Shown piece after piece: positions 11,066-15,601 of a stretch of 64,000 nt of DNA. A model generated the notes under the pieces. That model did not search any database, was not told where the DNA came from, and was given only the letters and a program-made list of their open reading frames with translations. This DNA comes from Escherichia coli (GTDB taxonomy: Bacteria; Pseudomonadota; Gammaproteobacteria; Enterobacterales; Enterobacteriaceae), in NCBI RefSeq assembly GCF_003790525.1, contig NZ_CP033635.1. One strand, written 5' to 3'. The position numbers were made by a program, and so were the translations under genes. The first letter of the stretch is position 1. Each line of letters opens with the position of its first letter.

Positions 11066-12189
11066 TGCGCCATTTACGCAATATTTTTAATCTGGGTATC
11101 AAAGAGTTGCGCAGTTTGCTCGGTGATAAAGCGATGCTGACGCTGATTGTCTTCTCGTTTACGGTGTCGGTGTATTCGTCAGCGACCGTTACGCCAGGAT
11201 CGTTGAACCTCGCGCCGATCGCCATTGCCGATATGGATCAATCGCAGTTATCGAACAGGATCGTTAACAGCTTCTATCGCCCGTGGTTTTTGCCACCGGA
11301 GATGATCACCGCCGATGAGATGGATGCCGGGCTGGACGCCGGACGCTATACCTTCGCGATAAATATTCCGCCTAATTTTCAGCGTGATGTCCTCGCCGGA
11401 CGCCAGCCAGATATTCAGGTGAACGTCGATGCCACGCGCATGAGCCAGGCATTTACCGGCAACGGGTATATCCAGAATATTATCAACGGTGAAGTGAACA
11501 GCTTTGTCGCGCGCTACCGTGATAACAGCGAACCGTTGGTATCGCTGGAAACCCGGATGCGCTTTAACCCGAACCTCGATCCCGCGTGGTTTGGCGGGGT
11601 GATGGCGATCATCAACAACATTACCATGCTGGCGATTGTGTTGACCGGATCGGCACTGATCCGCGAGCGTGAACACGGCACGGTGGAACACTTACTGGTG
11701 ATGCCGATAACGCCGTTTGAGATCATGATGGCAAAGGTCTGGTCGATGGGGCTGGTGGTGCTGGTGGTGTCGGGATTATCGCTGGTGCTGATGGTGAAAG
11801 GTGTACTGGGTGTACCGATTGAAGGCTCGATCCCGCTGTTTATGCTGGGCGTGGCGCTCAGTCTGTTTGCCACCACGTCAATCGGCATTTTTATGGGGAC
11901 GATAGCGCGTTCAATGCCGCAACTGGGGCTGCTGGTGATTCTGGTGCTGCTGCCGCTGCAAATGCTTTCCGGTGGCTCCACGCCGCGCGAAAGTATGCCG
12001 CAGATGGTGCAGGACATTATGTTGACCATGCCGACGACACACTTTGTCAGCCTCGCGCAGGCCATTCTCTACCGTGGTGCCGGATTCGAAATCGTCTGGC
12101 CGCAGTTCCTGACGCTGATGGCAATTGGCGGCGCGTTTTTTACCATTGCGCTGCTGCGATTCAGGAAGACGATTGGGACAATGGCGTAA
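11062..12189 (+). CDS. yhhJ: ABC-2 family transporter permease YhhJ
   Basis: Start taken at ATG 11062 ([18 protein letters not shown]...), overlapping the rbbA stop TGA; 375 aa, hydrophobic C-terminal half. Confidence 0.85.
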
Positions 12190-12200
12190 GGAAGGGAAAC

Positions 12201-12250
12201 TTGACTTCATATTGTGATGTCATACTATTGATGTCATAAAGTGAAGTCAT
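12201..12250 (+). promoter_or_regulatory. Putative sigma70 promoter and operator repeats of the HicA/HicB-like operon
   Basis: TTGACT (12201-12206), 16-bp spacer, TACTAT (12223-12228); inverted repeat TGACTTCA (12202-12209) / TGAAGTCA (12242-12249) and direct repeats TGATGTCATA; AAGGA SD at 12251-12255. Confidence 0.35.
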
Positions 12251-12305
12251 AAGGACATGCCATGAGAACCCTGGTACAGGCTTTACGGAAGAAACAAAAA
12301 ATACA

Positions 12306-12536
12306 TTGGATCAAATATTTAAATCTCCTGTTCCTCAAGGGATTAAGTGGTCTGATATAGAGTCACTGGTTAAAGCATTAGGCGGAGAAATTAAGGAAGG
12401 AAGAGGTTCGCGTTGTAAGTTCATACTAAATATGAGCGTTGCGTGTTTCCATCGGCCTCATCCGTCGCCAGATACCGATAAAGGCGCTGTAGAAAGCGTG
12501 CGTGACTGGTTACTAAGTATAGGGGTAAAACCATGA
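12306..12536 (+). CDS. HicA-like toxin (YcfA/HicA family); TTG start as drawn, possibly frameshifted relative to an upstream ATG at 12262
   Basis: Core IKWSDIESLVKALGGEIKEGRGSRCKF...FHRPHP...VRDWLLSIGV resembles HicA-family mRNA interferase toxins; stop overlaps the downstream antitoxin ATG (ATGA). See finding on the A6 tract. Confidence 0.55.
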   Translation: MDQIFKSPVPQGIKWSDIESLVKALGGEIKEGRGSRCKFILNMSVACFHRPHPSPDTDKGAVESVRDWLLSIGVKP

Positions 12537-12892
12537 TCAAACTGAAGACGCCAAACTCTATGGAGATTGCCGGGCAACCTGCTGTTATCACTTACGTGCC
12601 AGAACTGAATGCATTTCGTGGCAAATTCCTGGGCTTGTCAGGTTATTGTGATTTTGTCTCTGACAGCATTCAGGGGCTGCAAAAAGAAGGGGAGCTTTCC
12701 CTGCGAGAGTATCTTGAGGATTGTAAAGCTGCGGGTATTGAGCCGTATGCGCGTACAGAAAAGATTAAGACCTTTACATTACGCTATCCAGAATCGCTGA
12801 GTGAACGCCTTAATAATGCGGCTGCGCAGCAACAAGTCTCTGTAAATACTTATATTATTGAAACGCTAAATGAGCGTTTGAATCATTTATAA
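12533..12892 (+). CDS. HicB-like antitoxin with C-terminal ribbon-helix-helix DNA-binding domain
   Basis: 119-aa ORF; N-terminal HicB-like region (YxGxF...EDCKAAGIEP) and C-terminal RHH-like TLRYPESLSERLNNAAAQQQVSVNTYIIETLNERL; AGGGG SD; overlaps toxin stop. Confidence 0.65.
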   Translation: MIKLKTPNSMEIAGQPAVITYVPELNAFRGKFLGLSGYCDFVSDSIQGLQKEGELSLREYLEDCKAAGIEPYARTEKIKTFTLRYPESLSERLNNAAAQQQVSVNTYIIETLNERLNHL

Positions 12893-12941
12893 CTTATAGC
12901 GGCCCAACAATTTCTGTTGCGCCGCTATATTTTTGTGGCTC

Positions 12942-13802
12942 TTAAGATGCCTTTCTAATCAATCGATGCCCCTCATTCATCATCAGGATTTTGCTATACA
13001 CATCTTCCTCGACGGCATTTTTTGCTGATGCCATCACTCGTGCCAGATTCGCCTCGTTGTGATTATTCACATACGCTTTGCCGACGGCAGTGATAAACGC
13101 TTTGCGCAGATCGCTGGCGATATTCACTTTAGCGACGCGATAATTAACGAAACTGCGTAATATCTCCGGGGCGATACCGGAGCCGCCGTGAATAACCAGC
13201 GGCACCGGGCTGACTTCGGCAATGCGCTTCAGCAGGGGGATATCGATCCGCGGTATATCGTCCAGGCCATGAACGTTACCAATAGAAACTGCCAGCATGT
13301 CGCAACCGGTGCGTTCGACAAAGGTCTTCACCTTTTCCGGTTCCGTTTTGCAATCGGCTTCGCTGACGTGATCGTCTTCTTTGCCGAGAATCGCCCCCAG
13401 CTCCGCTTCAACCGGTACGCCATAGGATTTACAGAAATCGACAGCTTCCTGGGTGAAAGCGATATTCTCTTCAAAAGAGAATGCGGCACCGTCAATCATG
13501 ACCGAGGTAAAGCCCGCGCGCACCGCCTGTTTAACATCCTCCTGAGTTTTCCCGTGATCAAGATGAAGACTGACCGGAACATCCATTTTATCAGCGTGAC
13601 GTTTCACGATTTCATAAATGTAATCGTATCCCGACAGTTGTGCATTGGTGGGCGCAATCTGAATGAAGTTGGGTAATCCTGAACGCTCAATGGCGTTTAA
13701 AATTGAAATCGTTGTCTCCAGATTGGTGGTATTAAATGCGCCCGCTAATACCCGTTTTTCCTGAATGCGGTCGAGCAGTATCCGTCCATTAACTAATGGC
13801 AT
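12942..13802 (-). CDS. Class II ketose-bisphosphate aldolase (GatY/KbaY/FbaA family)
   Basis: 286-aa ORF with zinc-site motif SLHLDHG and GxxHG typical of class II tagatose/fructose-bisphosphate aldolases; last gene of the minus-strand PTS operon. Confidence 0.8.
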   Translation of the reverse strand: MPLVNGRILLDRIQEKRVLAGAFNTTNLETTISILNAIERSGLPNFIQIAPTNAQLSGYDYIYEIVKRHADKMDVPVSLHLDHGKTQEDVKQAVRAGFTSVMIDGAAFSFEENIAFTQEAVDFCKSYGVPVEAELGAILGKEDDHVSEADCKTEPEKVKTFVERTGCDMLAVSIGNVHGLDDIPRIDIPLLKRIAEVSPVPLVIHGGSGIAPEILRSFVNYRVAKVNIASDLRKAFITAVGKAYVNNHNEANLARVMASAKNAVEEDVYSKILMMNEGHRLIRKAS

Positions 13803-13833
13803 ATTGAAAACCTCATCTTTTAATATCAGTTAA

Positions 13834-14103
13834 TTATTCAGCTTCACCGAAGCGGTCGCGAAATAAGGTAGTGAGAGTTTGTATTGCCTCGTTTTCATCA
13901 TCACCTTCGCAGCGTATTTCCACCGTTTTTCCGCCTTTTATTCCGGCGCGCATAATATTCATCATGCTGGTGGCATTAATATCATTACCTTCATAATGCA
14001 GCGTCACTTTACAGCTATATTTTTTGGCGGCTTTCGCCAGACAGGCCGCCGGACGTGCATGCAGGCCAGTACTGTTTCTGACCTCCACGGTTTTACTCAA
14101 CAT
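13834..14103 (-). CDS. HPr-family phosphocarrier protein (operon-dedicated paralog)
   Basis: 89-aa ORF with active-site His15 context GLHARPA and HPr-like length; start overlaps the kinase stop by 11 nt. Confidence 0.8.
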   Translation of the reverse strand: MLSKTVEVRNSTGLHARPAACLAKAAKKYSCKVTLHYEGNDINATSMMNIMRAGIKGGKTVEIRCEGDDENEAIQTLTTLFRDRFGEAE

Positions 14104-15601
14104 AGTGCTCCTCCCGATGATGTAATGGCATCACGCCTTCTTGCTGTAATTTCAACTGATACCAGCTTTTCCATTTGTGCTGATAACGCTGTAATTGATG
14201 GTATCTCGCCCGATTCGGTAACAAACGTTGGGCTATGGTGACTTGCGGCGGTGGAATATCCGGTGCGGCGGTTAATAATGCTCCGACAGAAACCGCCTCG
14301 TTAAATGCAATTGCTTCAACCGGACGCTGTAAAATATCCGCCTTTAATTGCAGCCAAAGGGGATTACGGGTTGCCGGACCTATCACTTTTAACGCGCTGG
14401 TGCCGGGCACATTAAAACAGGCGAAGCAGTTGGCAAATTCCATGGTTAATCCCAGTGAGACGCTGGCAATTAACATATCGATATTTAACGTATCGCCAAG
14501 CCCATAAAATAATCCTCGGGTATGGCGATTTTTATAGGGCGAACCCGAACCGCGAAGATGCGGAATAAAAACGGGAATGTCATCGAGCGACCAGTTCCCC
14601 GCCAGGTAATCCGCATGTCCGCGAGTAAGTGATGCGGCGATCTCCTCATCGGTTAGCCGGAACGTGTTGCGCAGCCACTCCAGAGCGAAACCGCCCACCG
14701 GCAGCGACGCAAACAGGGTGAACTGGTTTGCAAGCGAATAACAGCCGTTTGCCAGCTTGTCACGTTTGGCATGTTCATCCAGCGTCGGTTGTGTATCCAG
14801 TTGCAGAATGCCTTCTGTGGTGCCCGTCGAGTTAAGGATATCGCCCGGCGTCATCTGCAACGCCCGCGCACCCACCATATGGTCATGCCCGGCCAGCGTC
14901 ACGCTGACCGGTTGCAAGAACCCAAGCGTTTTGCAGAGCGACTCGCTGACCCATCCGGCGTGCTCGCCTGGCTGCACCAATGGCGCAAATGCTGAACAGG
15001 GAACGTGTAACAACGCCGCCGCTTTCGCTGACCATTCGCCTTTACGCACGTCCAGACACAGCGTACGGCTGGCTAAGGTGATATCCGTACGCTGTTCGCC
15101 AGTCAGCCGCCAGAGCAGTACTTCCGGCGCATGTAGCCAACGCAGGCCGCGGCGATTACGCAGTGGATAATGCTCCAGCAACCAACGCATTTTGAAGGCA
15201 GAGTAATTGCTGTGCAGCGGTAGCCCGCAGATGTCATAAAGCGCCGCACTGTCTGCCTCACTAAGCGTTGCCAGGTACTCTTCACCGCGGCGGTCATACC
15301 ATGCCAGCATTGGCGTCAGGATCTCGCCATGCTCGTCAAGAAACACCCCTGACTCGCCAAAACTGGCAATGCTTATCCGCCTGACCGGCAGCGGCGAAGC
15401 GGCGCTCAGTTGCGCTATTGCCTGGCGGACCTCCTGCCAGAGGGCGTCGATATCGAAATCGACATCGCCCTGTGGGGAGATCTGTTTTGCCGTCACGAAT
15501 TTATGCGCGCCCAACGTCGTTGCATCCAGGCAGGAAAAGCAGGTGACTTTGCAATTGGTGGTGCCAATATCGATAACGATAGCTGCGCTGTTATCAGGCA
15601 T
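14093..15601 (-). CDS. FGGY-family carbohydrate kinase
   Basis: 502-aa ORF with FGGY N-terminal motif VIDIGTTNCK and two actin-like ATPase halves; overlaps the EIIC stop by 8 nt. Confidence 0.75.
   Translation of the reverse strand: MPDNSAAIVIDIGTTNCKVTCFSCLDATTLGAHKFVTAKQISPQGDVDFDIDALWQEVRQAIAQLSAASPLPVRRISIASFGESGVFLDEHGEILTPMLAWYDRRGEEYLATLSEADSAALYDICGLPLHSNYSAFKMRWLLEHYPLRNRRGLRWLHAPEVLLWRLTGEQRTDITLASRTLCLDVRKGEWSAKAAALLHVPCSAFAPLVQPGEHAGWVSESLCKTLGFLQPVSVTLAGHDHMVGARALQMTPGDILNSTGTTEGILQLDTQPTLDEHAKRDKLANGCYSLANQFTLFASLPVGGFALEWLRNTFRLTDEEIAASLTRGHADYLAGNWSLDDIPVFIPHLRGSGSPYKNRHTRGLFYGLGDTLNIDMLIASVSLGLTMEFANCFACFNVPGTSALKVIGPATRNPLWLQLKADILQRPVEAIAFNEAVSVGALLTAAPDIPPPQVTIAQRLLPNRARYHQLQRYQHKWKSWYQLKLQQEGVMPLHHREEHYVE

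Follow-up and report, generated by a model that had tools for sequence, protein, structure and literature searches.

The short intergenic region in front of a HicAB-like toxin-antitoxin pair in E. coli carries a promoter-like sequence overlaid with repeats, and the question that this locus raises is whether the repeats form the operator through which the antitoxin controls its own operon. A sequence-only reading of the window (the whole 64-kb stretch of E. coli DNA analysed in this study) had described, in the 70 bp upstream of the toxin gene, a sigma70-like promoter (TTGACT-16-TACTAT), an 8-bp inverted repeat flanking it and a set of direct repeats, and had proposed autorepression by the RHH domain of a HicB-like antitoxin. 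Each of these sequence elements was found again in our analysis, within an intergenic region of 72 bp, and the features of the locus are collected in Table 1. With a probability of roughly 85%, we read the yhhJ-hicA region as the sigma-70 promoter of hicAB combined with a four-box HicB operator, through which the operon would be self-repressed by way of the RHH domain; the comparison of related loci supports this reading well.

Table 1. Coordinates of the features of the hicAB locus in the window.
Feature	Position	Strand	Remarks
yhhJ stop codon	12187-12189		
yhhJ-hicA intergenic region	12190-12261		72 bp
-35 hexamer TTGACT	12201-12206	+	Inside box 1; TTGAC(T/G)TCA kept at the same position in orthologs
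24-nt direct repeat	12201-12224 / 12228-12251		79% identical
Box 1, TGACTTCA	12202-12209	+	Consensus form; overlaps -35; most orthologs have a box over -35
21-nt imperfect inverted repeat	12202-12222 / 12229-12249		
Box 2, TGATGTCA	12215-12222	+	In promoter spacer; clade-specific; least certain site
Direct repeat TGATGTCATA	12215-12224 / 12229-12238		Copies 14 bp apart
14-bp unit missing from the deletion allele	12215-12228		Equivalent to box 2 plus -10
-10 hexamer TACTAT	12223-12228	+	16-nt spacer after -35; TAnAAT in orthologs, abutting or overlapping box 3
Box 3, TGATGTCA	12229-12236	+	Abuts -10; spans predicted start site
Predicted transcription start	~12235		From promoter position
Box 4, TGAAGTCA	12242-12249	+	Consensus box, inverted; in 5' UTR, 13 bp after box 3
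Shine-Dalgarno AGGA	12252-12255	+	6 nt before hicA ATG; GGA after box 4 kept in the anchored ortholog alignment
hicA, frameshifted	12262-12536	+	A run 12296-12301 has 6 A; 7 A in most E. coli
hicA codon 2	12265-12267		TAA in E. coli 600468
hicA-derived ORF	12262-12360		32 aa
hicA-derived ORF	12306-12536		76 aa; TTG start; entire HicA domain
hicA stop/hicB start overlap	12533-12536		ATGA
hicB	12533-12892	+	119 aa, intact; predicted N-terminal partial RNase H-like domain and C-terminal RHH
Candidate intrinsic terminator	12895-12934	+	Hairpin 12895-12929, then TTTTT; directly after hicB stop
Aldolase/HPr/FGGY-kinase genes	12942-15601	-	Downstream of hicAB

The locus lies on the E. coli chromosome, flanked on one side by yhhJ, which encodes an ABC-transporter permease, and on the other by a convergently oriented class II aldolase gene. 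hicAB is inserted here as an accessory element: of 5426 complete E. coli genomes, 2070 (~38%) matched an 851-bp query over most of its length, chromosomally every time, and in K-12 and BL21 the match was limited to the end of yhhJ, with the adjacent hicAB missing. No paper on this yhhJ-adjacent locus was found in the literature searched. The gene pair has the layout of one transcription unit, with a single promoter-like site 5' of hicA, overlapping hicA stop and hicB start codons and a hairpin after hicB that has a predicted stability of -21.2 kcal/mol (z -5.1; 0 of 200 shuffled sequences were equally stable). This hairpin and the T-run behind it probably terminate the operon; a simple terminator scan missed the hairpin because its stem is bulged. 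The surroundings vary among strains. The aldolase, HPr and FGGY-kinase genes downstream form a further variable island, nikR directly follows hicB in other strains (window 12190-15601 compared with loci L001, L002 and L003), and strain CS5L has an IS1 inserted inside the stretch that matches window 12100-12950.

The toxin gene placed downstream of the promoter by the sequence-only reading is of HicA type, although it is not intact. Only after restoring one base did hicA match the dsRBD-like HicA_toxin family of Pfam (PF07927; E 2e-9; score 37.9 bits, cutoff 27), and the resulting 91-aa protein is the form conserved across genera. The six-A allele recurs in 25 of 1241 matching E. coli genomes, SMS-3-5 among them, and is therefore a lineage allele rather than a read error; NCBI PGAP flags the identical SMS-3-5 allele as 'frameshifted'. 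Full-length HicA is missing in this strain because of the frameshift, and residual toxin expression may come from the 76-aa ORF, which keeps the whole HicA domain. Since full-length HicA is blocked, the circuit in this strain probably works mainly as HicB self-control, and toxin-antitoxin autoregulation fits fully only the intact hicA alleles.

The protein encoded by the antitoxin gene has the same sequence as the annotated HicB of other E. coli strains (WP_000593555.1); it matches Pfam HicB (PF05534, E 2e-15) and, below threshold, an Arc-like domain (E 0.008). In the AF2 model of HicB (pLDDT 83), residues 9-67 form four strands and a helix (pLDDT ~90), and two C-terminal helices follow the conserved strand segment KTFTLRYPE. 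A fold search with this model returned, as the best PDB entries, HicB of B. pseudomallei (6g26; E 0.02, Foldseek probability 1.0) and a HicB from E. coli (6u0i), and the modelled C-terminus aligns with the Arc repressor (1b28) with a TM of 0.66 and an rmsd of 2.9 Å over 43 residues. Searching the sequences of solved structures with HicB and HicA gave nothing meaningful, the best matches being Arc (E 0.27) and unrelated enzymes. The model suggests a partial RNase H-like fold in the N-terminal part, an assignment that rests on the fold because sequence identity is low. The Pfam match, the weak Arc match and the resemblance of the model to both B. pseudomallei HicB and Arc agree with the HicB-like, RHH-containing antitoxin that had been proposed. 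In the Gerdes classification, class 4 hicAB systems have hicA upstream and a HicB with an RHH domain. The locus combines a HicA domain, a predicted RNase H-like fold, a C-terminal RHH and the order hicA-then-hicB, which fits a type II toxin-antitoxin system of the HicAB family, class 4; by membership in this family, HicA would be toxic and HicB would neutralise it.

A consensus promoter scan recovered TTGACT-16-TACTAT upstream of hicA with 9 of 12 matches. Taken alone, this match is not significant, as 3 sites were found against 2.0 expected in the 1.3 kb scanned, and only its conservation in orthologs lends it weight. The repeats are equally present: TGACTTCA returns as its exact reverse complement, TGAAGTCA, on the other side of the promoter, TGATGTCATA occurs twice, and a repeat search returned the longer direct and imperfect inverted repeats listed in Table 1. 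What did not stand was their description as separate kinds of element. The better and simplest reading resolves the inverted and direct repeats into a single 8-bp pseudo-palindromic box, TGAnnTCA, present four times with start-to-start spacings of 13, 14 and 13 bp. The inverted repeat corresponds to boxes 1 and 4, which are the same box in opposite orientations, and the direct repeat to boxes 2 and 3. Between them the four boxes cover the -35 hexamer, spacer and predicted start site as well as the 5' UTR.

The box pattern was chosen post hoc from the window sequence and was then tested on independent loci, which therefore constitute the real test. Starting from a 27-member HicB alignment and one genome per species, the ortholog scan yielded 49 loci, with genera including Citrobacter, Enterobacter, Kosakonia, Trabulsiella, Photorhabdus, Xenorhabdus, Pectobacterium, Brenneria, Pantoea, Erwinia, Serratia, Buttiauxella and Cedecea, among others. 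Enrichment was calculated for the 38 hicAB loci outside Escherichia that had a usable upstream region, in ~20 genomic contexts. In the 100 bp 5' of hicA these loci contain 111 TGAnnTCA boxes, that is 29.2 per kb compared with 0.29 per kb elsewhere in the same loci, an enrichment of ~100-fold. At least one box was present in 38/38 loci, at least two in 33/38 and four in 15, and the central dinucleotide was CT in 81 boxes and CG, which makes the box a perfect palindrome, in 15. Start-to-start spacings of 13 bp were observed 41 times and spacings of 26-27 bp 20 times. We compared 45 loci, with the window and the alleles from E. coli and Escherichia among them, and counted 23 distinct gene contexts on the upstream side and 23 on the downstream side; the boxes are kept despite these differing flanks and thus belong to the hicAB module and not to its neighbourhood. 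Conservation of the repeats in orthologous loci was one of the points on which the sequence-only reading could have failed, and it was found.

The alignment of these upstream regions, anchored on their most conserved box, shows a consistent architecture. An upstream pair of boxes lies at ~-71 and -58 from the hicA ATG, the second of which is the -35 element itself (TTGACTTCA); an unconserved spacer follows and then a -10 element, TAnAAT, its final T doubling as the opening T of a second box pair at ~-32 and -19, with a GGA ribosome-binding site next. The position of box 3 is the most conserved, at ~-32 in 18/38 loci, with its partner 13 bp downstream retained. Orthologs keep TTGAC(T/G) and TAnAAT at matching relative positions, and the conserved hexamers point to a sigma-70 promoter of hicAB with a predicted start site. 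The comparison gives a family box consensus of TGACTTCA or TGACGTCA, which can be written as TGAC(T/G)TCA.

The E. coli layout differs from this architecture in its upstream half. The far-upstream box of most genera is missing in E. coli because yhhJ ends there, and box 2 lies in the spacer, exactly 13 bp after the -35 box. At the place of box 2, Citrobacter sedlakii, which shares the yhhJ context, has TGCTGTCA with one mismatch, and Enterobacter has CGCTATCA; in other genera the spacer is unconserved, and there is nothing corresponding to box 2 beyond the Escherichia/Citrobacter/Enterobacter clade. A local 14-bp duplication may account for part of the resemblance. One may therefore ask whether the boxes are HicB sites but function is confined to boxes 3 and 4, the pair that other genera keep, possibly together with box 1, with box 2 a look-alike in a spacer that is nearly information-free in most genera. 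The ~800 E. coli genomes that are one 14-bp unit shorter, and nonetheless have a workable TTGACT-16-TAAAGT promoter and three boxes, speak for such a restriction. Box 2, however, is an exact TGAnnTCA match placed exactly 13 bp from box 1, at the spacing that dominates in the orthologs, which argues that the canonical pair was recreated in a clade that had lost its far-upstream partner, and the one-mismatch box of C. sedlakii stands at the same place. We regard a functionless box 2 as possible but somewhat doubtful, and favour a four-box operator whose upstream pair may have been rebuilt one step downstream in E. coli.

The alleles found within E. coli vary in the same stretch. The deletion between the TGATGTCATA repeats, which also occurs in Escherichia sp. 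E1V33, removes one repeat unit and leaves three boxes at 13-bp steps, with the -10 hexamer again abutting a box. Since C. sedlakii is collinear with the four-position layout, the short allele is the product of a deletion and the long allele is no recent duplication. The sampled deletion strain, E. coli 600468 (L002 1585-1720), also has a TAA stop at hicA codon 2, and PGAP annotates a CTG-start 76-aa HicA for it. Between the window and the 600468 allele, hicB shows 6 nucleotide and 0 amino-acid differences and the hicA core 17 nucleotide and 3 amino-acid differences, so that both the hicA core and hicB look to be under constraint. Present in ~38% of complete E. coli genomes with three promoter/toxin alleles, the locus offers a natural experiment on the decay of toxin-antitoxin control.

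The strongest in silico argument for HicB itself, and not a host factor, as the reader of the boxes comes from the covariation of the box with the predicted RHH beta-strand. Among 27 orthologs the strand residues K79, F81, T82, L83, R84, Y85, P86 and E87 are invariant, in parallel with the invariant TGA..TCA of the boxes. In a small sample of seven distant loci, with homologs from plasmid records among the sources, the box sequence shifts with this strand: KTFTLRYP-type strands accompany TGAC(T/G)TCA, and GKFNVRI-type strands accompany TGGTACCA-type boxes in the same paired layout. A Salmonella plasmid HicB with 50% identity and the strand KSFTLRYP has four copies of TGACGTCA at -75, -62, -33 and -20, and an E. 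coli paralog next to flhA (45% identity, KRLTLRVP) has TGACACCA and TGACGTCA alternating at -73, -60, -33 and -20. The four GKFNVRI-type loci, on plasmids of Shewanella, Enterobacter hormaechei, Acinetobacter and Vitreoscilla, have TGGTACTA, TAGTATCA or TGATACCA boxes and no TGAnnTCA upstream of hicA, and the spacing is 13 bp in the three of them that have two matching boxes. In detail, the Shewanella locus (40% identity, GKFNVRISPE) has TGGTACTA, TAGTATCA, TGATACTA and TGGTACTA; that of E. hormaechei (38%, GKVSTRLTPE) has TGGTATCA and TGATACCA; that of Acinetobacter (34%, GKFNTRIPPK) has TAGTACCA and TGGTACTA; and that of Vitreoscilla (40%, GRFNVRINPK) has TAGTACTA, then TGGTACTG 13 bp downstream. 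The window family, in comparison, holds 121 boxes of the TGAnnTCA type and 1 of the TGGTACCA type. The combinations KTFTLRY/TGACGTCA and GKFNVRI/TGGTACCA represent a natural specificity pair for studying how RHH beta-strands read DNA.

From these observations a mechanism can be proposed. One dimeric RHH unit of HicB would occupy each TGAnnTCA box, its two-stranded beta-sheet, built from the strand KTFTLRYPE, reading the TGA/TCA half-sites in the major groove. The boxes would act as 13-bp pairs, 1 with 2 and 3 with 4, and one HicB tetramer might span either such a pair or an interval of 26-27 bp; once occupied, the boxes would cover the -35 hexamer and spacer together with the start site and the early part of the transcribed DNA, exclude RNA polymerase and so repress the operon in vivo. 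At a spacing of 13 bp, adjacent boxes face different sides of the helix, which counts against this model. By analogy with the HicAB systems of E. coli K-12 and B. pseudomallei, excess HicA may relieve the repression. The array has the properties of an autoregulatory operator, in that palindromic sites lie over the operon's own core promoter, are conserved independently of their flanks and track the residues predicted to read them. The autorepression by the RHH domain of HicB put forward in the sequence-only reading is thereby supported on comparative grounds, through box enrichment, fixed positions and beta-strand covariation. Other RHH proteins offer parallels for such an arrangement: MetJ binds tandem 8-bp palindromic met-boxes, AGACGTCT, with one dimer per box, and FitA RHH dimers bind 8-bp half-sites, TGCTATCA. 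The met-box core GACGTC resembles TGACGTCA, a resemblance of mechanism only, as MetJ and FitA are unrelated to HicB outside the RHH fold. The geometries also differ, met-boxes being contiguous with an 8-bp repeat and FitA sites lying 20 bp apart, compared with the 13 bp of the pairs in the window.

A further-reaching reading takes the RHH-DNA geometry to be both fixed and previously undescribed, with 8-bp pairs exactly 13 bp apart even where TGACGTCA is exchanged for TGGTACCA, and sees in E. coli a rebuilt operator and a module on its way to becoming a self-controlled stand-alone regulator. It may apply to the COG4226/PF05534 type of HicAB, with a 119-aa HicB and a 91-aa HicA. In E. coli, on this account, the far-upstream partner may have been lost and a new partner box may have arisen in the promoter spacer, and the start of the toxin gene may be eroding by lineage, through the frameshift or the codon-2 stop, with HicB unchanged. 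Taken as a whole, we consider this elaboration unlikely, and retain self-repression of hicAB through a HicB operator as our reading.

Binding of the boxes by a host transcription factor, which would place the operon under host control, deserves consideration because HicB binding is a prediction and TGACGTCA-like palindromes are recognisable by many dimeric regulators. The consensus sites of two candidates are TGTGA-N6-TCACA for CRP and TTGAT-N4-ATCAA for FNR. By eye, the promoter contains no good site for either, with a single half-site matching in each case, and both candidates were rejected. There is a precedent for host control in the hicAB of E. coli K-12, which has a promoter under CRP-S/Sxy beside the one controlled by HicB (PMC11594946). 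The boxes of the window family, however, stay with the module in 23 or more contexts and in many genera, and another 8-mer takes their place exactly where HicB has a different beta-strand. We therefore judge a host factor to be a very improbable reader of the array.

The repeats could also be functionless, arising by chance or as a by-product of a 14-bp tandem duplication in AT-rich intergenic DNA. In favour of this view, the TGATGTCATA repeat recurs after 14 bp, many E. coli are one 14-bp unit shorter, which shows slippage, and the promoter match is not significant in isolation. The expected number of chance occurrences within 70 bp is ~0.03 for an 8-bp inverted repeat and ~0.002 for a 10-bp direct repeat. 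The pattern TGANNTCA is not enriched in the 64-kb window as a whole (16 observed against 14.6 expected), and 4 of these 16 occurrences fall within 48 bp. In 2000 simulated windows of the same dinucleotide make-up (Markov-1), the largest cluster held one box in 1790, two boxes in 209, three boxes in 1 and four boxes in 0. Boxes 1, 3 and 4 are moreover positionally conserved across genera that share no flanking sequence, and the collinearity of C. sedlakii with all four positions makes the short allele a deletion, so that conservation largely refutes an origin by chance or duplication, which we hold to be extremely unlikely. Just as little credence is due to an action of the repeats in RNA, as HicA cleavage sites or as structure in the hicAB leader: HicA is an RNase and boxes 3 and 4 would be transcribed from a start at ~12235, but boxes 1 and 2, like the far-upstream pair of the orthologs, lie 5' of the -10 hexamer and are not transcribed from this promoter. 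The palindromic form of the boxes, their presence in either orientation and their covariation with a DNA-binding beta-strand also speak against a role in RNA.

The preferred reading, self-repression by HicB, corresponds to what has been reported for related systems. HicBs of the RHH type bind operators in their own promoters, and the examples characterised to date form tetramers that contain two RHH units (PMC11594946). In Y. pestis, HicB3 binds two sites, BS1 and BS2, in PhicA3, the main one overlapping the -10 element, and HicB binds and represses there on its own as well as in complex with HicA (PMC11594946). The Y. pestis HicA3-HicB3 system thus resembles the window in having several operator sites around the promoter. 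It differs in the form of these sites (two 15-bp inverted repeats, compared with four 8-bp boxes paired at 13 bp), in the 174-bp gap between hicA3 and hicB3, where hicA and hicB of the window overlap, and in its HicA3, which is unlike the 91-aa window HicA with its N-terminal extension. The two HicB proteins are not detectably similar, since no match with E<1 was obtained among solved structures, including 4P78. HicB of B. pseudomallei is an RHH tetramer on a palindrome over the -10 element, and excess HicA frees it from DNA (PMC11594946). This HicAB complex (PDB 6G26) is the best structural match to our HicB model at only 11% sequence identity; a single palindromic site has been reported for it, in contrast to the array of four boxes, and its HicA is short (~60 aa compared with 91 aa in the window). 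Among characterised operators, those of Y. pestis and B. pseudomallei come nearest to the array in the window.

In E. coli K-12, HicB (hicAB, or yncN/ydcQ) represses a promoter of its own operon through the hicO operator, and the operon has two promoters, P1 under CRP-S/Sxy and the repressed P2 (PMC11594946). Species and toxin family are shared with the window, whereas the K-12 HicB has a helix-turn-helix domain in place of the RHH, and the two K-12 promoters contrast with the window locus, in which no promoter-like site within hicA, corresponding to an internal hicB promoter, came out of the consensus scan. Two other systems were considered as relatives and rejected. For S. meliloti, the HicB identified by tblastn with 30% identity is encoded on a plasmid and differs from the characterised chromosomal pair smc04441/smc04269, whose HicB begins MRNYIGLI. 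The gonococcal HicB, for which a DNase I footprint exists, resembles that of B. pseudomallei (133 aa; its HicA has 60 aa) and, like the characterised S. meliloti HicB, belongs to another HicB lineage. The literature searched held nothing on a TGAnnTCA-type box in connection with hicB or antitoxins, a paper on an IncI2 plasmid HicAB gave no operator description, and neither a sequence-detectable solved structure nor a published operator, nor any report of binding or repression, was found for the subfamily of the window HicB. Our analysis thus provides a concrete candidate operator, TGAC(T/G)TCA in 13-bp pairs, for a widespread enterobacterial HicAB subfamily. The result agrees with the textbook model of toxin-antitoxin autoregulation, an ordinary type of control to which it poses no challenge.

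Some E. coli have a second hicAB paralog of this subfamily, 45% identical, which in E. coli TUM18781 lies between flhA and yafL and has a four-box array of its own in the same layout; cross-talk of the two E. coli HicBs on TGACGTCA-type boxes is conceivable.
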